From Escherichia coli (GTDB taxonomy: Bacteria > Pseudomonadota > Gammaproteobacteria > Enterobacterales > Enterobacteriaceae), in assembly GCF_013122565.1 (NCBI RefSeq), contig NZ_CP053258.1: 64,000 bases of DNA; one strand, given 5' to 3'. Both the position numbers and the translations under genes were made by a program. Below, piece by piece: positions 36,242 through 46,065 of this stretch (positions are counted from its first letter, which is position 1; every line of letters begins with the position of its first letter). The notes beneath the pieces were generated by a model. That model was not told where the DNA came from and did no database searches. It saw only the letters and a list, made by a program, of their open reading frames with translations.

Positions 36242-36576
36242 TATTCGTCGTCGCCAATCTCATCATCAATGTTGACGTCCATGCCAGCGACAAGTTTCTT
36301 TCCTTGTTGAATGTCGAATGGACGAGTTTTTTGCGGGTTGTTCTGGATATCTGCATCCAGAAAACGCAAAAATGCATTCATAGTATGATCCTCCTGTTCA
36401 TCTCCCAGTCGGCACATAAATACTTGCCCACCAGGCAGAATTTCGTAATGAATGTTGTCCAAGCCTGGCTTCAGTTTTAAGGCCTCACGCACTGGCGCGG
36501 GGATAGTTGTTTGTCCGCGTATCGTGACCTTTGATTCAGTGGTCAGTACAGCGTGAGAGCGAGCATTAGCGGGCAT
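36241..36576 (-). CDS. prlF: Antitoxin PrlF (SohA), 111 aa
   Basis: MPANARSHAVLTTESKVTIRGQTTIPAPVREALKLKPG…; stop overlaps the yhaV ATG by 1 nt (TAATG); within track ORF 36241..36717. Confidence 0.9.
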   Translation of the reverse strand: MPANARSHAVLTTESKVTIRGQTTIPAPVREALKLKPGLDNIHYEILPGGQVFMCRLGDEQEDHTMNAFLRFLDADIQNNPQKTRPFDIQQGKKLVAGMDVNIDDEIGDDE

Positions 36577-36650: not shown

Positions 36651-37064
36651 GCAGCAGAAAGCGCCAGAACCAACGAAAAAAGAGAACATGTTTCCCATTT
36701 TGCGAGGCGCTTTCCAAATCGTCCGCTCAGTCCCCTCGCACGCCAGCGCTAAAACCACTATTTTGCAAATCTGTGACCTCCTTCACTCTCCATAAAGGCG
36801 GTGATCTAATGGTGTGGATCCACTTTCTGCTTTCGCTTGTCTGCCGTAAGCACTCGCTATTTCGTCATCTCTCCTTTTCACTTTTTCAGTTTGTCATTTT
36901 CATTTGCGGTCAACCGAAAGATCTGGAGTCGATTTTTCCAGGTTTCAACGCCGTTGTCGGGTTCACAAATTCACTTCTTTTCTTCTGATGTAATGCATTC
37001 AAAAGAAAATGAAAGTTTCAAAATGCAAGAATGCAACGAAATACTTTTTCAGGGAGCGATTAAC

Positions 37065-37835
37065 ATGCTAGATAGCCTAAGACGCCGCGAACAAATCATT
37101 GATTTGTTATGTGCCCAGGGAAGCGTACGCGTTGAGCCGCTCAGCATCCATTTTGGTGTCTCATCGGTCACGATCCGCAATGACTTACGGTATCTGGAGC
37201 AAAAAGGTTGCGTCATGCGTTCCTATGGCGGTGCCGTGTTGAATCAACACTTTGCGCTCGACAGACCCTTGCAGGATAAAGATCGCCTTAATCGAGATGT
37301 TAAAGTGCGAATTGCCGAAAAAGCAGCCAGTTTTGTCAAGGATGGCGATACATTAATTATCGATTCTGGTTCAACGACCACGCTAATTCCAGCTTCGCTA
37401 AAGGGGCGTCGGGATTTAGTCGTTATGACGAATGCCTTGAATATCGCCTGGGAAATGGCCAGTTTTGAACGGGTGGATGTTATGATCCTTGGTGGAAACG
37501 TTCGCCAGAGCGTCTTCTCCCTGTATGGGCCTTCGGCAGAACATCAACTCCGGCAGTATCGCTTTGATAAGCTGTTTCTGGGCGTGGACGGCTTTTGCCT
37601 TGAAGCAGGGATTACCACACCACATCCGGGTGAGGCACATCTGAACCAGGTAATGTGTCAGGTTGCTCAGGAAATCACAGTTGTCGCGGACTCCAGTAAA
37701 TTTGGCCGGAAAAGCTTCTGTATGATCGGCGAAGTGAGCGAGATAGATCGACTGATTACCGATAGTGGTATTCCGGATAATTACAAACACGCATTAACGC
37801 AAATGGGTGTGGAAGTTGTGATTGCAGATGAGTGA
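37065..37835 (+). CDS. DeoR-family regulator, AgaR paralog (256 aa)
   Basis: ATG at 37065 preceded by cagggag; HTH …VSSVTIRNDLRYLEQKG… nearly identical to the AgaR recognition helix; DeoR C-terminal domain. The track ORF 36837..37835 is an upstream extension. Confidence 0.8.
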   Translation: MLDSLRRREQIIDLLCAQGSVRVEPLSIHFGVSSVTIRNDLRYLEQKGCVMRSYGGAVLNQHFALDRPLQDKDRLNRDVKVRIAEKAASFVKDGDTLIIDSGSTTTLIPASLKGRRDLVVMTNALNIAWEMASFERVDVMILGGNVRQSVFSLYGPSAEHQLRQYRFDKLFLGVDGFCLEAGITTPHPGEAHLNQVMCQVAQEITVVADSSKFGRKSFCMIGEVSEIDRLITDSGIPDNYKHALTQMGVEVVIADE

Positions 37836-37879
37836 GAAAATGTGGCTGGAGATAAACGTCGCCAACCACATTGCGTTAT

Positions 37880-38791
37880 TTACGTTGTATGTTTGATTTG
37901 CAGTAAAGCCGCGCCTCGTACGCCGCTTGTCGCCCCATGAACGGCAGAAAATACGCGCGCAGGTTCCAGACCCGGAAGAAGGTAGCGCGTCATGGCTTTC
38001 GGCAATAAGGCATAAATCTCTTTAAAATTAGACAACCCACCGCCAAGAACAAATGCATCAACGTCGAGAATATGCTGCAATTGCGCCAGTGTACAACCAA
38101 CCATGTCTATCCAGGCGTTTATAGTGGTGATAGCACTGGAAATGCCATGTTGATGATTTTCTAATAATGTCTCCATAGTGATTTGCTCACCGCTGAAATG
38201 CTTATGTAACCAGAGCAAACCAGGGCCAGACTGGTAGCGTTCCACACACCCTTGCAAACCGCAGCCGCATTGTAATTCAGGAAGGTTATAGCGCCGCATA
38301 AATGTCGCCGGGAGCGGTAAATGACCAAACTCGCAGGCCATACGGTTACGGCCACGGTATAACTGGCCATCAATAACTAATCCCCCGCCCATACCCGTGC
38401 CGATAATCGCGCCAAAGATCCGGCTATATTGACGAGCTTGATCGGTATGCGCTTCTGATAGGGCGAAGCAACAGCAGTCATTATCCATTATTACCGGGCG
38501 GTTAAGGCGATTTGCCAGATCGGTTAATACCTGGCGTCCGGTCAGGCAGGGAACGTTAGAAGACAACAGTTTACCGGTGTGCCGATCCATAACGCCGGGC
38601 ATCCCGATACCTATTTTGCCTTGCGTACCCGTGGCCCAGTCAGCGGTATCAATCAGAGACACAAATGTGGATAGAAAAAGCGCGTAATCCTGAACAGGCG
38701 TAGCCACCCGCTTGCGCCAGCAAATTTGTAAATCCTGATCAAAGGCGACTATCTCTGTTTTGGTTCCGCCAATATCAACACCGTAAAACAT
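37880..38791 (-). CDS. ROK-family sugar kinase, NagK-like (303 aa)
   Basis: MFYGVDIGGTKTEIVAFD… N-terminal ATP-binding motif; Zn-binding CxCGxxGC motif (CGCGLQGC); same length as NagK. Confidence 0.8.
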   Translation of the reverse strand: MFYGVDIGGTKTEIVAFDQDLQICWRKRVATPVQDYALFLSTFVSLIDTADWATGTQGKIGIGMPGVMDRHTGKLLSSNVPCLTGRQVLTDLANRLNRPVIMDNDCCCFALSEAHTDQARQYSRIFGAIIGTGMGGGLVIDGQLYRGRNRMACEFGHLPLPATFMRRYNLPELQCGCGLQGCVERYQSGPGLLWLHKHFSGEQITMETLLENHQHGISSAITTINAWIDMVGCTLAQLQHILDVDAFVLGGGLSNFKEIYALLPKAMTRYLLPGLEPARVFSAVHGATSGVRGAALLQIKHTT

Positions 38792-38809
38792 CGCTCATCT
38801 CCTTTGGTT

Positions 38810-40066
38810 TCACAGCACAACCAGGGTATTTTCCTTGCGAGCGCGTTCGGCGGCAAAGACCATCAGGTGACTTTCAAGTGATTCATTGGGGCCTGAGAGG
38901 ATCAGGTTTTGATCGCCCGCTAATACCGCCTGAATAAAGCGATCCATCAGATAGTAATCCCCACCACCGTGACCCCCCATTTGGGTGCGATTACCCGCTT
39001 CGATCTCCTCAATGGTGTATATAGTTTGCTGGTCGGTGAGAAAATCAAAACACCGAATGGTGTTGCCATCCCCTTCCAGATAGCCTTTCGAACCAAAAAG
39101 GCGGGTTTTGCGATCTTCCATTTTCGTAAAGGCCGTCATTGTAAAAGTGACGCTCTGCTGATGCGCAAATTGCATGTTGACCACTTGATGATCGACAACA
39201 TTGTTATCGCAGCAATAAACGCAGCGACCATAGGGACCGTCACGTAGCGACTGACGAACGTTTTCTTCTGTGGGGTTTGCCGTTAACACGCGACGGAAGT
39301 GAGGCGTACATTTATGGGCATCACCAAGATAAATTTTGCATGCGGACCACGGGCAGGTAGCTTCGACCTGGCAATCAAGGCAGCGATCGGCTGCACCTTC
39401 GGGCTGGTTTTGCTTAATAAAATGGTTAAGGCCGCCAAATGAGGTAACACTTTTACAATTATCCCCCATGATGTAGCGGATCCAGTCCAGATCGTGGCAA
39501 GATTTTTGCAAAAGCATAAATGACGATTCAGCTTCGTTGCGCCAGTTACCACGTACAAAAGAGTGTGCCTGGTGCCAGTAACCGACGGGTTCGAGATGCT
39601 GCATACTGATAATGTCGCCAATGATGCCGCTGTCGAGTAAGGATTTGAGTTTTTGTGTATATCGGGTGTAACGAAGAACATGAGCCACCGCTAATAACAC
39701 ATGATTGCGTTTCACGGCATCAATAATGATACGGCAATCTGCAGCTGTCGGTGCTAACGGTTTTTCCAGCAGGATATGATATCCCAAATCAGCAAATGCA
39801 ACGGCAGGCTCTTTATGCATATTGTCTTGCGTACAAATGAGGACTACATCAGCCATTTTGGGGGCTTTTGCAGCTTCTTTCCAGTCACTAAAAATATTGT
39901 CTGAAGAGATATTATGCTGGGCTACAAATTGCTCTCGATAAACCTCTCTGGGTTCAGCAACACCTACAACTTGCATTCTGTCTGGATGTTCAAGAGCATA
40001 ACGGGAATATATTTCCCCTCGTGCACCTGCACCTATCACTAAAACAGAAACTTTGTTTTTATTCAT
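38810..40066 (-). CDS. Gfo/Idh/MocA-family NAD(P)-dependent oxidoreductase with an unusual Cys-rich segment (about 418 aa)
   Basis: N-terminal Rossmann motif VLVIGAGARG; C-terminal alpha/beta domain; Cys cluster CLDCQVEATCPWSACKIY…CTPHF…CVYCCDNN. Start taken at MNKNKVSVLVIGAG within track ORF 38810..40093. Confidence 0.7.
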   Translation of the reverse strand: MNKNKVSVLVIGAGARGEIYSRYALEHPDRMQVVGVAEPREVYREQFVAQHNISSDNIFSDWKEAAKAPKMADVVLICTQDNMHKEPAVAFADLGYHILLEKPLAPTAADCRIIIDAVKRNHVLLAVAHVLRYTRYTQKLKSLLDSGIIGDIISMQHLEPVGYWHQAHSFVRGNWRNEAESSFMLLQKSCHDLDWIRYIMGDNCKSVTSFGGLNHFIKQNQPEGAADRCLDCQVEATCPWSACKIYLGDAHKCTPHFRRVLTANPTEENVRQSLRDGPYGRCVYCCDNNVVDHQVVNMQFAHQQSVTFTMTAFTKMEDRKTRLFGSKGYLEGDGNTIRCFDFLTDQQTIYTIEEIEAGNRTQMGGHGGGDYYLMDRFIQAVLAGDQNLILSGPNESLESHLMVFAAERARKENTLVVL

Positions 40067-40104
40067 GGTGAAAAGACCTTCTGATAAATTCATCTGCTTG
40101 TTTT

Positions 40105-40863
40105 TTATAAATTACGAAAACTAACAAGATGAAATCCGCGTTTTTCAATCTCATATTTGAGTGACGACGTAGTCAGAACTGCTAGTTCTTCCAGTCGTTG
40201 GTAGCAGTAACTGCTCAACATTAAGGGGGTATCGATAAACCCTGGGTGACACATAATTTCCAGAGACTTATCATTAGTTTTTATGGCTCTATCAATAAGT
40301 GACAAGAAAAAGTCTTCTGAAATATTCTCATCGTAGAAATCACTGCTGAACCCATCACTACTTTTTACATTCCGCGAATCGATGTTTTTCTCTCGTAAAA
40401 CGGAACGGTCGATACGTAACGGTAAATTTTTCTCACGCGCGAAACGAGCGACGATGGGATAAACCTGCGGGATCATATGAACGCTGTGATGGCTGTCTAA
40501 ATGGGTGGGCTCCCGTTTAAATACATCAATAAAACGTTGATATTGAGAACTCAGTTCCTGTTCAATTTCGCCTAGGTTTAATTGCCCTTGCTCCGCAACC
40601 TCCCAAATCCATTTACCTAATCTACCTTCACGTGTCAGTGAAGGCATATCCGTTAAGGCAGCGCCATAGCTCAAAACAAAATGTAAACCGACGCCGAGTT
40701 GTGGGGTTTCGGCACTCAACGAGGCGGCATGATCAATTGCCGGAGCGTTCATCATCGCTGTTGTTGAGCGAACCACGCCATTCCGTACCGCCTCGATGAT
40801 TCCATAATTAATACCTTTGCTTAGTCCAAAATCGTCCGCATTCACAATTAATAAGCGTTGCAT
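40105..40863 (-). CDS. YdjC/ChbG-family carbohydrate deacetylase (252 aa)
   Basis: [25 protein letters not shown]…; conserved HxDSHH-type motif ([10 protein letters not shown]). Confidence 0.8.
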
Positions 40864-40875
40864 AAGGTATCCTTG

Positions 40876-42228
40876 TTACTGATGAGATTGGGTAAGTTCA
40901 GCAATAGTGCTGGAAAATTGAGGTAGATGTTTTTTATGGGCAATGATCAGTTCACGCACTAATTTTTCAGCGTCGTTATCCGAGGTCATTAGCGGGTTAA
41001 GACACAGAGCCAGCAGCGTATCGTTAAAGTTACCACTTATTGCCGCCCGGGCTGCCGCAATCTCAAAACATTTGATTGAATGAATGAGCCCCAGTACATT
41101 TTCGTCAAAATGAGTGAGACGCGGGTGGGGGGTAACACCGTTATTCCCCAGAATGCAGGTCATTTCAACGGTCCAGTCTTCAGGGATATTTTTTACACTG
41201 CCCTTGTGTGGAATATTAACGTAGTGTTCTGTTTGCGTGTCATTATAAATTGCATTAATAACGGCACAGGCTGCATCTGAATAATACGCACCACCACGCA
41301 GATCCAGTTCTTCAGGTTTTGTATTTAGTTCTGGGTCCTTATACAGCTCAAATAATTTCTTCTCTAATGCCTGCACGACTTGTGCACGAACGCCATTTTT
41401 ATAAAATTCCCCCATCTCAATGGCGAGCATTTCTTTATGTTTAAAATAGTAACGTAAGTAAGCACAGGGCAGGAGATTAAGTGCCCGAATTAAATTAGGA
41501 TTGAAGGTTAAACTGTCAATATTTTTGACGGTACTTCCTTCAAGCAGACCTTCAACGACGCCATCGAGCAATTCAGCAAAACGTGATTGTCCATTGACCC
41601 ATACGTCTTTAAGAAAGACCATATGATTTAAGCCAAATATGTCTATTGAAAGATCATCGTCCGCGCCAAGTTTTAGGGCATTGCGAACGAAGCTCTTCAT
41701 CCCAACAGGGACATTACAGACACCGATAAACCGTTTAAATTGGGTATGGCGGTACACGGCTTCAGTGACCATCCCGGCAGGATTGGTGAAATTAATAATC
41801 CAGGCATCGGGGCAAAGTTCTTCTACATCTTTGATAATATGAAAGATCACGGGGATGGTACGCAATCCGTTGAATAAACCGCCTGCGCCATTGGTTTCTT
41901 GCCCCAGATATCCCTGACTTAGTGGCATCAACTCATCCATTTCCCGCGCTTTTAATTGCCCGACCCGAAACTGTGTGGTGACAAAGTGCGCGCCCTGTAA
42001 TGCTGTGCGGCGGTCCAGGGTTTTCACTATTTTTAACGGAATGCCTGCTTTGACTACCATTCGCTGACAAAGGTCGAAAATAATGTCCAGCTTTTCTTTG
42101 CCTTCTTCAATATCAACTAGCCATAATTCACTGACCGGTAATTCATCGTAGCGTTTTATGAATCCTTCAAGGAGTTCTGGCGTATAGCTACTGCCACCGC
42201 CAATAGTAACGATTTTTAAATTTTTCAT
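40876..42228 (-). CDS. Glycoside hydrolase family 4 6-phospho-glycosidase, ChbF-like (450 aa)
   Basis: MKNLKIVTIGGGSSYTPEL… NAD-binding N-terminus; GH4 length and motifs. Confidence 0.85.
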   Translation of the reverse strand: MKNLKIVTIGGGSSYTPELLEGFIKRYDELPVSELWLVDIEEGKEKLDIIFDLCQRMVVKAGIPLKIVKTLDRRTALQGAHFVTTQFRVGQLKAREMDELMPLSQGYLGQETNGAGGLFNGLRTIPVIFHIIKDVEELCPDAWIINFTNPAGMVTEAVYRHTQFKRFIGVCNVPVGMKSFVRNALKLGADDDLSIDIFGLNHMVFLKDVWVNGQSRFAELLDGVVEGLLEGSTVKNIDSLTFNPNLIRALNLLPCAYLRYYFKHKEMLAIEMGEFYKNGVRAQVVQALEKKLFELYKDPELNTKPEELDLRGGAYYSDAACAVINAIYNDTQTEHYVNIPHKGSVKNIPEDWTVEMTCILGNNGVTPHPRLTHFDENVLGLIHSIKCFEIAAARAAISGNFNDTLLALCLNPLMTSDNDAEKLVRELIIAHKKHLPQFSSTIAELTQSHQ

Positions 42229-42305
42229 GTTACTTCCATACTCAATATTAAATTGACTTGTGATTCCATGTTTTTATCTAAACCTTGGCATGAAGACGCG
42301 TCCTA

Positions 42306-43667
42306 TTAAAACTTCAACGCATTTGCTATATCTTCTTCGCTTTCTTCTTTATTAATTTCGACTTGTGCTTTGTTTGAGATAATGACAAAGGGAAGATAAA
42401 CCATTGTGGCAACACCTAAGTTAAAGAGTGCCAGGAGTAATCCAGCAATGCTCCCATTTGAACTGAAGAATGCATTAAGTCCAGGGGGCATGGTCCAGGG
42501 GGCGATATTTGTTGATGGCGGAATAATACCCATGTTATAGGCGATTAAGGTAATCCCGGCGAGAATGGGTTGAATCATCACAAACGGAATTAACATAATG
42601 GGATTCATAATGATCGGCAAACCAAATAAAATAGGTTCGTTGATATTAAAGATACCAGAAGGTAACGCTAATTTAGCAACCTGACGATAATCCTCCCGGC
42701 GTGAGGCAATGAAAATAGCGAAAATGAGTCCCAGCGTTGCTCCTGTTCCACCGAGGAATACGTAAGCGTCAAGCATTGGCCCGGTCCAGAAATGGAAGGT
42801 TTTTCCTGCTTCCAGTGCCGCTTGTACCGAACCATATTGTGTATAAGTCGCAATATTTTCCAGACCCCAGGGACCCAGCGTGCTGCTTTGTAACGCAGTT
42901 AATACTAAACCGCCGTGGATACCAAAGAACCATAACAGGGAATTAAAGACAACGAATGTCCAGCCAACAATACTGCTCATTGACGTTAATGGCGTAGCCA
43001 GTGAGGTGATAATGACCTGATGGAAATTGGTGCCATATATCGACAATATGCCAGATAAACTCCCCATAATTAACAGGATAATAAACCCAGGCACCATTGC
43101 CGAGAATGAGCGTGATACTGCTGCCGGGACACTCGCGGGTAAACGAATCACCCAGTTGCGACGGATAATAAAAGCGAAAATTTCCGCTACAACTAATCCA
43201 ATGATCATACCAGACAGGATATTGGCTCCCCCCAGCCAGTTTGCGCCAATGACATTAGCAGTTTCTCCTGCTTTGAAGGGGGTGACGGTCATAAACGCTG
43301 CGACAGAGAGTAAGCCAACGGATAACGAATCAACTTTCCGTTCTTCGGCCAACCCCATCCCAATAAAAAAGGGGGTCATGAGTGACATAATGCCCAGCGT
43401 GCCATGATAAGCACTGTCACCGACGACGGTGAAGGCGCTTAAGGTTTTTATGGTCGATGGTTCCAGTCGGACGCCTAATGAATAAAAAAAGGAGCCTTCG
43501 CCAAAATCTAAAAAAACGCTATTAATGAGAACAAATAACGTACCGGCTAACGTTAATGGCATCATACGGATAAAACCGTTTTTTATTGCATTGACGTGAG
43601 GTTGTTTCCCTAATTTAACTGCAAAAGGAAGAATGAGTTTTTCAAGTAACGCCATCACTCCGGGCAT
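42306..43667 (-). CDS. PTS lactose/cellobiose-family EIIC permease, ChbC-like (about 450 aa)
   Basis: Polytopic membrane protein; conserved IIC core (…[22 protein letters not shown]…[11 protein letters not shown]); the exact start may be a few codons downstream. Confidence 0.85.
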
Positions 43668-43741
43668 AAAAATATCCTTATATACCGATTAATGTATCAC
43701 TTTGATTATTGTTGTAGATCAATCCTATTGATAGGGTAGGG

Positions 43742-44059
43742 TTACTTCTGTTGTTTTTTTATCATGGCAATGGCAGATTTTAATACGCCTAAACCATCAA
43801 TTTTCCCATATAACATTGAATCTATAACTTCCACTGGCTTTCCAGGTAATAAGCTTTGGATCTCTGATTGCATATAAGCAATTTGCGGTCCTAATAATAT
43901 AACATCAGCTTCCGGACCTTTCTCTGCAGCAACAGATTCGGAGAATGCTTCAATAATTACCGGCACATCATATTTTATTGCCTGCACTTTCATCTTAGAA
44001 ACTAGCAGAGATGTTGACATTCCCGCCGAGCAAAATAAATATATTCTTTTCTTTTCCAT
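43742..44059 (-). CDS. PTS lactose/cellobiose-family EIIB, ChbB-like (105 aa)
   Basis: [23 protein letters not shown]… with the phospho-acceptor Cys in the CSAGMSTS motif; start chosen within track ORF 43742..44122. Confidence 0.85.
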
Positions 44060-44493
44060 AGGGACTCCGGATATATTAAGGTATAATATATTTGTCATGC
44101 CATAAATGGCATATAATGCCACTTATAATTAATAAAACACCGATTTTTATATTGATTTCCTGAATGTCGTCTTTAGGTATTAATCTCAGGAGTTTCAGGA
44201 ACCATTGAATAATCTGGTTTATAGAATTGAATGTCAAGTTAGTGAAATGGTGGGAGTGCGGTAATAAAAATAGTGCGGCTTTCGGTTGGTTTCTTTTTTA
44301 TCAGAACGAAAAGTACAGTTAAAATGATTTCTGGATAAATTGAAGTTTTTTCAATGAATTACATTTTTGTCTGCCCGTGGGAATGAAAAAAACAATAATC
44401 AAAAAATACTTTAGATATGTGAGCGTTATCACTTCCTTTTTGTTGGGAAAACGGGGAAACACAGTCTCCCCATTTTCCGTTCATGCGAGGTCG

Positions 44494-46065
44494 TCAGGTC
44501 ACCGGTGCCGGGTTAAACACAGCCAGCTGGTTATGCAGTCCCCATTGATCCGAGAAGGTTTTCTTCTTCCCGCTGGCGACGTCGAGAATAAAGTGGAACA
44601 GCTTCCAGCCCACTTGTTCAATGGTCTCTTCGCCGGTAGCGATAGTACCCGCATTAATATCCATTAAATCAAACCAGCGGTTCGCCAGCTCGGTGCGGGT
44701 CGCCATTTTAATGACGGGTACCGCCATCAGGCCGTACGGCGTACCACGGCCGGTCGTAAACACTTGCACTGTGATACCCGAAGCCACCTGTTGCGTGCCA
44801 CAGACAAAATCGCTGGCTGGCGTCGCGGCGTAAATTAATCCGCGTTTAGTCGGACGTTGACCGGGCGACAGCACTTCAACAATTGCGCTTTTACCCGATT
44901 TAGCAATGGAGCCGAGCGCTTTCTCCACCACATTTGCCAGACCGCCTTTCTTGTTGCCCGGCGAAGGGTTGGCGCTGCGGTCGGTTTTTCCCATATTGAG
45001 ATAGTTATCGTACCACTCCATCTCCTCAAGCAGCCGTTTGCCGACCTCTTCGTTCACTGCGCGTGGTGTCAGCAGATGGATCGCGTCACGCACTTCCGTG
45101 ACTTCTGAGAACATCACCGTTGCGCCGCAGCGCACCAGTAGATCAGACGCATACCCAACCGCCGGGTTTGCCGTTACGCCAGAAAAGGCATCGCTGCCAC
45201 CGCACTGCATGCCGACAACCAGTTCTGAAGCCGGACAGGTTTCTCGCTGACGTTGATTCAGTTTTTGTAGATGGCGTTCGGCGACCTGCAAAATATCCTC
45301 GACCATGGACTGAAAACCGACATGCTTTTCATCCTGCAAACTGACAATGCTGGCGCTTTCTACTGGAATAGCTTGCACATCATCCGTTCCAGTCAGCAGG
45401 CGCTCAGGCTGCAACTTTTCACAACCCAGGCCAATCACCATTACTTCGCCGCCAAAGTTAGGGTTCAGCGAAATATTGTGAATGGTACGAATAGGCACAA
45501 CTGCCGCCGGTGCGTTAATCGCCACGCCACAACCGTACAAATGATTCAGCCCCACCACGCCATCGACGTTCGGGTATTTCGGTAGCAGATCGCGTTCAAT
45601 GATTTTTACTACATAGTCCACCACGCCTGCCACACAGTGGACGCTGGTGGTGATGCCGAGCAGGTTTTTGGTGCCCACGCTGCCATCGGCATTGCGATAG
45701 CCCTCAAAGGTGTATCCTTCCAGTGGCGGTAAGGGTTCCGGGACTTTGGTTGCCAGTGGCAGCGTGTGTAACGGCGGCGCTTCCGGTAGTACAACCATTG
45801 ATTCGTCGATCCAGCTTCCGCGTGGGATTGCACGCACGGCGTAACCAATCACTTCGCCATAACGAATAATTTCACCATTAGCCGGAATGTTGAGCAATGC
45901 GACTTTATGCCCCTGGGGAATATGTTCAATTAATTCCAGCCCATCCGGAAAACGCGTTCCTGCTTTCAGGCCATTATCATTAACAATAATTGCCACATTA
46001 TCTGTGTCGTGAACTTTTATATAAAACGCAGTTGGCGTTTCTTGTCTGATTTCGATGTTGGCCAT
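44494..46065 (-). CDS. garD: Galactarate dehydratase (523 aa)
   Basis: Track ORF; translation [39 protein letters not shown]…. Confidence 0.93.

Follow-up and report, generated by a model that had tools for sequence, protein, structure and literature searches.

What does a second AgaR-like repressor do beside the aga regulon? The question is raised by a stretch of 64,000 nucleotides from Escherichia coli (assembly GCF_013122565.1, contig NZ_CP053258.1; hereafter the window), which corresponds to the aga/gar region in an E. coli-like arrangement, reversed in orientation compared to K-12, and which harbors an accessory island. The island encodes a 256-residue regulator of the DeoR family (37065–37835, + strand) whose gene is separated by 1.3 kb from agaR with its aga cluster, yet is paired with a non-aga operon. 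The initial annotation proposed that this protein and AgaR may recognize overlapping operators and thereby couple the island to the aga regulon. The analysis described here indicates that the island is probably controlled by an autoregulated AgaR-type repressor that acts through arrays of CTTTC boxes at both island promoters.

The island regulator and a second AgaR lineage

The regulator gene was assigned from its translation, from Pfam and NCBIfam profiles and from its RefSeq name, and has the ribosome-binding sequence GGGAG 8 nt upstream of the open reading frame. The product displays the two domains of a DeoR-family protein, namely HTH_DeoR at residues 7–61 (E = 5e-17) and DeoRC at residues 76–234 (E = 2e-51) in Pfam. 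It also scored 363.3 bits with the NCBIfam AgaR equivalog model NF040755 (cutoff 260) in an end-to-end alignment (2–254/2–256). The model specific for E. coli AgaR, NF007316/PRK09802, gave 270.5 bits which is below its cutoff of 351, and the resident AgaR (34913–35722, +; 100% identical to WP_000072187.1) scored 577 bits. Thus, the regulator represents a separate AgaR lineage and is not the ortholog of b3131. A protein with 98% identity is labeled "transcriptional repressor AgaR" in RefSeq, where the two adjacent genes share the symbol agaR. The regulator therefore is a member of the known AgaR family and already is named as such.

The regulator was aligned with its orthologs, with AgaR and with six other DeoR-family paralogs of E. 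coli MG1655. Overall identity with the resident AgaR was 43%, the DNA-binding domain being the more similar part (59%) and the sensor domain the less similar one (41%); for SrlR, the DNA-binding and sensor domains gave 43% and 39%, respectively. The DNA-binding domain accordingly is specifically AgaR-like, whereas the sensor domain is no nearer to AgaR than to SrlR, in agreement with the divergence of the effector-binding domains that was noted initially. The helix-turn-helix (HTH) segment with the recognition helix, VSSVTIRNDLRYLEQKG (residues 32–48; 37158–37208, +), had been described as almost identical to that of AgaR. This was a slight overstatement as 12 of the 17 residues are identical, although the core S-x-VTIRNDL is common to both proteins and differs only by S/T. 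Of the eight DeoR-family proteins of E. coli in the comparison, only AgaR and the island regulator have VTIRNDL; SrlR, GlpR, DeoR, UlaR, FucR and YgbI carry TIRKDL, TIRRDL or TARRDI in place of TIRNDL. The two proteins therefore have the domain architecture, the VTIRNDL helix and recognition by NF040755 in common, but differ in overall sequence, in the outcome with PRK09802 and in a 13-residue N-terminal extension that is missing from the island regulator. A search of the PDB produced a sole match, 7l6l, to a distant DeoR sensor domain (E = 1.5e-7), which sheds no light on the DNA or the effector that the regulator recognizes.

A scan of one genome per species recovered 26 loci with orthologs of the regulator. 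The ortholog is 87–92% identical in eight genomes of Citrobacter, one of Escherichia sp. and one of another enterobacterium, and there has the same neighbors, in the order agaR, regulator, ROK and Gfo genes with garD beyond, as far as the contigs permit. Both paralogs are present together in at least eight Citrobacter species genomes. The orthologs in Hafnia, Edaphovirga and 13 Photorhabdus species are 74–78% identical to the island regulator and head an agaR-kbaZ-agaS-agaV-agaW-agaE-agaF-kbaY operon. In P. luminescens, where the protein is AgaR (plu0832), the operon has been described as agaR-agaZSVCD-gatY, with plu0838 ahead of gatY (PMC2422844). Compared to the Photorhabdus-type agaR which is the first gene of an aga operon, the window gene stands alone, converges with a non-aga operon and resides in a genome that also possesses an E. 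coli-type AgaR. As the closest relatives head true aga operons, the island protein is, as judged from sequence, a second, divergent AgaR lineage that is used as a local repressor, and not a new kind of DeoR protein. A literature search on the island and on additional AgaR proteins retrieved nothing relevant, the matches being swamped by the word "agar".

AgaR-type operator matches at both island promoters

The AgaR operator reportedly follows the consensus WRMMTTTCRTTTYRTTTYNYTTKK. When up to three mismatches were permitted, the window contained two perfect matches and four with 1–3 mismatches, all of which are in the kbaZ/agaR and agaS promoters (0.18 expected), and no match in the island. 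The location of all six matches in aga promoters supports the consensus. Three further non-aga matches appeared in the 64 kb when four mismatches were permitted, two of them in the island promoters (36995–37018, −; 44276–44299, +), and weight matrices were adopted because the island sites emerge only at this level. The simpler pattern CTTTC-N6-TTTC matched six times in the window (0.76 expected), five times in aga promoters and once in the island operon promoter, and the site in the regulator promoter also was matched when the last base was relaxed to Y.

A weight matrix was constructed from seven aga-promoter sites whose leave-one-out scores were 10.6–24.2 bits. The two best non-aga matches to this aga-only matrix in the 64 kb were the island sites, with 21.5 bits at 36995–37018 and 20.9 bits at 44276–44299, and the next background score in the window was 13.4 bits. 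The matrix scan that the initial annotation had recommended as a check therefore detected both island promoters. The same annotation had regarded a lack of operator matches upstream of the island operon as decisive against its proposal; a predicted cluster at 44276–44320, a region that it had not examined, is in precisely this position.

GAAA/TTTC repeats might arise by chance in AT-rich promoter DNA, or might be the sites of an unrelated protein. The regions concerned are AT-rich (34–44% GC), and matches of 17.5 and 19.9 bits were noted in unrelated DNA, the latter being the highest of four off-target matches identified in 0.5 Mb of loci in which nearly all matches of ≥16.5 bits were in aga or island promoters. 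However, dinucleotide shuffles performed on each region separately attained the island scores in only 2 of 5000 trials for the regulator promoter and 9 of 5000 for the operon promoter (frequencies of 4e-4 and 2e-3), two regions thereby giving the same answer independently. Moreover, nothing in the rest of the window surpassed the background score given above, and the box positions are conserved across five genera and among the island variants. Chance or an unrelated protein is strongly disfavored and is highly improbable as the source of the boxes.

The operators in the aga promoters themselves were located at 34696–34719 (+), 34734–34757 (−), 34778–34801 (−) and 34873–34896 (−) in the kbaZ/agaR intergenic region (kbaZ, 33384–34664, −), with 0–4 mismatches to the consensus. 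Upstream of agaS (28143–29297, −), consensus and matrix matches are at 29349–29372 (+), 29396–29419 (−), 29427–29450 (−) and possibly 29586–29609 (−). These locations parallel the reported binding of AgaR to the agaR, kbaZ and agaS promoters (PMC3668189, citing Ray & Larson 2004). The match at 29586–29609, CTTTCTTTTTCTTTC, scored 22.8 bits and may be a distal operator; it precedes agaS by ~290 bp, close to where agaA ends (3′ end) and beside a REP-like GC-rich element.

Organization of the regulator promoter

For 15 loci from five genera, the 340-bp segments that precede the regulator gene were aligned, and the conserved blocks are collinear across them. The predicted operator in the regulator's own promoter, O3 (36995–37018, −), has four mismatches to the AgaR consensus, and its core on the + strand, CAAAAGAAAATGAAAG at 37000–37015, consists of two boxes 10 bp apart. 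The core is conserved as cGAAAGAnAnnGAAAG in the five genera and coincides at 14 of 16 positions with the agaS-promoter site GAAAAGAAACTGAAAG (29400–29415). As a simple −35/−10 scan called no promoter for the regulator gene, the promoter is predicted instead from conservation: an extended −10 element, TGaTGTAAT (36986–36994, +), corresponds to an invariant TGnTGTAAT block in the alignment. O3 covers the transcription start predicted from this element, a classic position for autorepression, which implies that the regulator would repress its own promoter through O3.

The initial annotation had drawn attention to AgaR-like repeats in a string at 37001–37044. The first part of that string, within 37000–37015, is the conserved core described above, but the "tgcaagaatgcaa" and "cgaaat" parts are not conserved. 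A third GAAA element and an AATGCAA repeat also were rejected as operators as neither is conserved in the 15-locus alignment. Furthermore, the stretch at 36990–37050 had been considered to couple the island to the aga regulon. It is upstream of the regulator gene only and hence bears on autoregulation, the catabolic promoter being at 44123–44493.

Additional conserved elements are present further upstream. The sequence TCACA (36963–36967, +), 21 nt upstream of the −10 element, is conserved in the alignment and probably constitutes the right half of a CRP-like site at a class II position; in Photorhabdus and Hafnia an intact TGTAA-N6-TCACA occupies this position. The use of TTCACA (36962–36967) as a −35 element was considered and rejected as the spacer would be 21 nt and a CRP half-site fits better. 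The upstream operator zone at 36874–36920, in which degenerate repeats of TTTTCA precede a CGAAAG box in inverted orientation (36915–36920), aligns with the CTTTCGTTTTGTTTC...CGAAAG inverted pair of the other genera. The distal boxes CTTTCtgCTTTCG (36823–36835, +) were delineated from the alignment and the box list, and include a GCTTTCG (36829–36835) that is kept in all genera. A distal CRP-like site, TGTGACCTCCTTCACT (36772–36787, +), is ~220 bp upstream of the predicted start and has one mismatch to TGTGA-N6-TCACA, with TGTGA...TCAC invariant in the alignment. The agaR promoters of Photorhabdus, Hafnia and Edaphovirga present the same succession as that of the island regulator: distal CRP-like site, GCTTTCG, inverted pair, TCACA, TGnTGTAAT and a two-box operator over +1.

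The 5′ leader of the regulator gene includes a perfect tandem repeat of period 8, AATGCAAG/AATGCAAC, at 37022–37037. Citrobacter has a different sequence at this position which also is a direct repeat of period 8, GCTAAAGC/GCTAAAAC.

Organization of the operon promoter

The island catabolic operon (37880–44059, −) converges on the regulator gene, and its promoter (44123–44493) is 7 kb away. This promoter was aligned for six island variants, including those in which the first gene differs. The predicted operator cluster, which reads TTTTCGTTCTGATAAAAAAGAAACCAACCGAAAG on the operon strand (44276–44320, −), accounts for the only CTTTC-N6-TTTC outside the aga promoters and is maintained in the six variants. 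It contains CTTTCGGTTGGTTTC (44279–44293, + strand) and CGAAAAG (44307–44313), and is conserved as TTTTCGTTyTGAtAAAAgaGAAACCtACCGAAAG with a separate TTTTC box. A σ70 promoter is predicted at 44209–44237 (−) from TTGACA, a 17-nt spacer and GATTAT, which together provide 10 of 12 matches in the scan; both hexamers are conserved, the former as TTGACa/t. The cluster therefore is ~75–115 bp upstream of the predicted start, and simple occlusion is unlikely at this promoter for that reason. Looping or anti-activation are guesses at the alternative.

A CRP-like site with one mismatch (44418–44433) forms a conserved block ~220 bp upstream of the operon promoter. A CRP-dependent promoter just downstream of this site was rejected as no conserved −10 element was evident in the six-variant alignment. 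Both island promoters thus have a one-mismatch CRP-like site ~220 bp upstream of the predicted start, which is beyond the ordinary range of class I or class II activation.

Common boxes and the possible separation of the two regulons

Upstream of agaR, Photorhabdus, Hafnia and Edaphovirga have boxes in the form of CTTTCG units whose positions are fixed. The E. coli kbaZ-promoter site at 34699–34713 has exactly the sequence of one operator core of Photorhabdus, CTTTCGTTTTGTTTC. Box-context logos were compiled for three sets: E. coli-type aga promoters, second-lineage promoters from loci in which no E. coli-type agaR occurs, and island promoters. All three yielded CTTTCGTTTT.TTTC as the consensus of a single box. 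A reciprocal matrix made solely from foreign second-lineage boxes assigned the top four, and seven of the top eight, places in the window to the E. coli aga operators, which it ranked above the island's own sites. As the box consensus is indistinguishable between the lineages, it is plausible that each repressor would recognize both the aga and the island promoters.

Functional cross-talk would go further than recognition. AgaR and the island regulator would each bind the aga and island promoters in vivo and co-repress them, with both signals or either one being needed for full induction. This possibility, although not the expected one, has a tangible chance of being correct. The recognition helix and the box consensus are common to both proteins, matrices trained on either lineage find the sites of the other, the O3 core nearly duplicates an agaS-promoter site, and the two genes are adjacent and coexist in the Citrobacter species noted above. 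However, with differing effectors, growth on N-acetylgalactosamine (GalNAc) would be blocked by any island repressor that remained uninduced on aga operators, and the stable coexistence of the paralogs in Citrobacter argues against such a cost. The number and spacing of boxes also differ between promoters, and the island sites are weaker matches to the AgaR matrix than the aga sites: in every genome with both paralogs, island sites scored 16.6–21.5 bits compared to ~21–29 bits for the main aga sites, a group made up of all four sites between kbaZ and agaR and the best-scoring ones in the agaS promoter. The lower values could reflect partial insulation or bias in the training set. As strong cross-binding by repressors with differing effectors would prevent induction by GalNAc, coexistence in Citrobacter implies either shared inducers or insulation.

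Insulation would mean that the box type is common by descent and that box arrangement, cooperativity or residues flanking the HTH keep the regulons apart, such that the likeness has no regulatory effect. The five substitutions in the 17-residue HTH segment, the limited identity of the DNA-binding domains (59%), the lower matrix scores of the island sites and the absence from the operon-promoter site of the middle TTT that is found in most aga sites are in keeping with this explanation. Yet the consensus does not distinguish the lineages, the reciprocal matrix prefers aga sites to those of the island, and a Photorhabdus operator core matches an E. coli AgaR site exactly. Complete separation of the two regulons consequently is considered somewhat unlikely.

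Possible effector and pathway of the island

The genes of the catabolic operon were identified from NCBIfam matches and from the RefSeq annotation of an island with 93% identity. All on the − strand, they specify phosphotransferase system (PTS) components IIB (43742–44059) and IIC (42306–43667), a GH4 6-phospho-glycosidase (40876–42228), a ChbG-like deacetylase (40105–40863), a Gfo/Idh/MocA oxidoreductase (38810–40093) and a NagK-like ROK kinase (37880–38791). The predicted targets next to the island regulator therefore code for a chb-like PTS together with GH4, ChbG, Gfo and ROK proteins, and are not aga genes as for E. coli AgaR. Uptake, phospho-glycosidase, deacetylase and kinase functions are represented, and downstream catabolic enzymes are absent from the island according to the NCBIfam scan.

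The initial annotation had attributed different sugar-phosphate effectors to the two repressors. This was an assumption that the relationships of the sensor domain do not support: it is 73–76% identical to those of regulators of true aga operons in the Photorhabdus/Hafnia/Edaphovirga lineage, compared to 41% for E. coli AgaR. The effector thus may be an intermediate of the aga pathway. If the regulator senses such an intermediate, for example GalNAc 6-phosphate, as presumably is the case for the Photorhabdus and Hafnia orthologs, the island would be a feeder arm that supplies N-acetylhexosamine (HexNAc) 6-phosphate to the aga pathway, and the same signal would induce both systems whether or not operators are shared. 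Besides the sensor domain, the complement of uptake, phospho-glycosidase, deacetylase and kinase genes without downstream enzymes favors this arrangement, as does the island's position, which in all island-bearing genomes immediately adjoins the aga cluster. Indirect evidence points to GalNAc 6-phosphate as the aga inducer (PMC3668189). On these four grounds, coupling through a shared inducer or pathway is an equally good model, and could operate instead of or in addition to shared operators. Nevertheless, a divergence of 24–27% in the sensor domain is sufficient for a switch of effector, and the role of the Gfo/Idh/MocA oxidoreductase is left unexplained, such that a shared effector can be advanced only tentatively.

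The operon also was compared to the E. coli chb operon, chbBCARFG. The island possesses homologs of ChbB, ChbC, ChbF (GH4) and ChbG, but has neither ChbA (IIA) nor the AraC-type regulator ChbR. The island promoter is not chb-like; it is common to the ATP-binding cassette (ABC) transporter variant of the island and carries AgaR-type boxes. As the PTS module comprises IIB and IIC without a IIA gene, its IIA function would need to be supplied by another system of the cell, such as ChbA.

Boundaries and variants of the island

Comparison by blastn with an island-free strain delimited the 7.8-kb island, relative to K-12-like E. coli, to 36651–44493, from the prlF promoter region to the garD stop codon (garD, 44494–46065, −). 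The order between agaR and garD is a yhaV pseudogene, prlF and then the insertion. The island is rare in the species, with megablast detecting it at ~93% identity in 3 of 5426 complete E. coli genomes. In those three genomes it directly adjoins agaR without prlF-yhaV, unlike the window in which the prlF-yhaV pair (35769–36568) and the island are both present (comparison with L001, an island-bearing E. coli locus). The joint presence of the toxin-antitoxin pair and the island marks the locus as a mosaic. The gene for the toxin of the pair, yhaV (35777–36241, −), has an internal stop at codon 41 and is a pseudogene, and likewise is annotated as a pseudogene in the closest island-free strain. The aga/gam cluster at 29648–33397 appears complete by open reading frame lengths, with agaA of 377 aa and agaF, agaE, agaW and agaV present, in which it matches E. 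coli C and O157 and not the deletion-bearing K-12 version.

In the variants of Citrobacter, Escherichia sp. and the other enterobacterium, an ABC transporter replaces the PTS, GH4 and ChbG genes. Comparison of window 40058–44192 with L002 12005–16316 and L005 3475–8249 placed the exchange between 44192/44193, just past the operon promoter, and 40057/40058 at the start of the Gfo gene, and both promoter regions are retained. One breakpoint thus closely follows the predicted start of the operon, and the other coincides with the 5′ end of Gfo. The ABC cargo of Citrobacter and Escherichia sp. MOD1-EC7003 consists of a binding protein, two permeases and a UgpC/MalK-like ATPase. A candidate internal operator, an AgaR-type match of 16–18 bits, immediately precedes the Gfo gene within the operon of two Citrobacter variants (L006 5770–5793 and L007 9517–9540). 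The Gfo and ChbG proteins of the window are 88–89% identical to those of island-bearing E. coli genomes (L001), compared to 96–99% for the other island proteins, which suggests that recombination has occurred within the island.

Discussion

The data point to a local circuit in which oligomers of the island repressor would bind arrays of CTTTC(G) boxes. At the regulator gene, a pair of boxes 10 bp apart over the predicted +1 of the extended −10 promoter would mediate autoregulation, with auxiliary boxes 80–180 bp upstream; at the operon, the box cluster upstream of the predicted start would take the corresponding part. CRP-like sites flank both promoters, and repression would be lifted when the DeoRC domain binds a sugar-phosphate effector. 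Box arrays with pairs 10 bp apart, an operator at the regulator's own promoter and CRP-like sites at promoters are likewise hallmarks of E. coli AgaR. The sequence comparisons establish the family and lineage of the protein, the operator matches with their statistics, and conservation among genera and island variants. We infer from them that the boxes are occupied by the island regulator, and not only by AgaR, as well as repression itself, the nature of the effector and where the promoters are. Where the regulator accompanies the resident agaR, in Citrobacter and in a small number of Escherichia, it accordingly appears to be a local repressor of an accessory sugar island with an exchangeable uptake module.

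Several observations weigh against this circuit. The operon cluster is well upstream of the predicted −35 element, which is unusual for simple steric repression and casts doubt on either the promoter assignment or the way in which the repressor would act. Within the window, the CRP-like site at the class II position is degenerate without its left half, and the middle operator zone is degenerate as well with TTTTCA in place of CTTTCG. The sole check on the operator consensus is its perfect matches in aga promoters. The island sites score below the main aga sites with the AgaR matrix in all genomes with both paralogs and, in principle, the boxes could be filled by the resident AgaR alone. Even so, conservation of the boxes across genera and variants, together with the independent matrix matches at two promoters, makes control of the island by an autoregulated AgaR-type repressor the probable arrangement.

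Pairs of paralogous repressors with overlapping operators, for which cross-binding has been demonstrated experimentally, are established in E. coli: GalR/GalS, ExuR/UxuR and GntR/IdnR. The sharing of operators by paralogous sugar repressors thus has precedents. AgaR and the island regulator resemble these pairs in comprising two paralogs with near-identical recognition helices, a common operator motif and related catabolic genes. They differ from them in that cross-binding is only predicted, and in that one partner is encoded on a rare accessory island. In its broadest form, the proposal is that a two-repressor circuit on a common operator code plugs the island into the core aga regulon, with the cassette of regulator and two operator-bearing promoters serving as a chassis for exchanged uptake modules that feed N-acetylhexosamine phosphates to the aga pathway. 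This extension is speculative and may well prove incorrect.

The shared RefSeq name agaR masks two lineages that are 43% identical, the second of which is paired with a non-aga operon. If the paralogs do share operators, the locus would illustrate how, in nature, an accessory island becomes wired into a core regulon by re-use of its operator code. The substrate of the island then would be indicated as a GalNAc- or HexNAc-containing glycoside, which would be relevant to the use of mucin-derived sugars in the gut.

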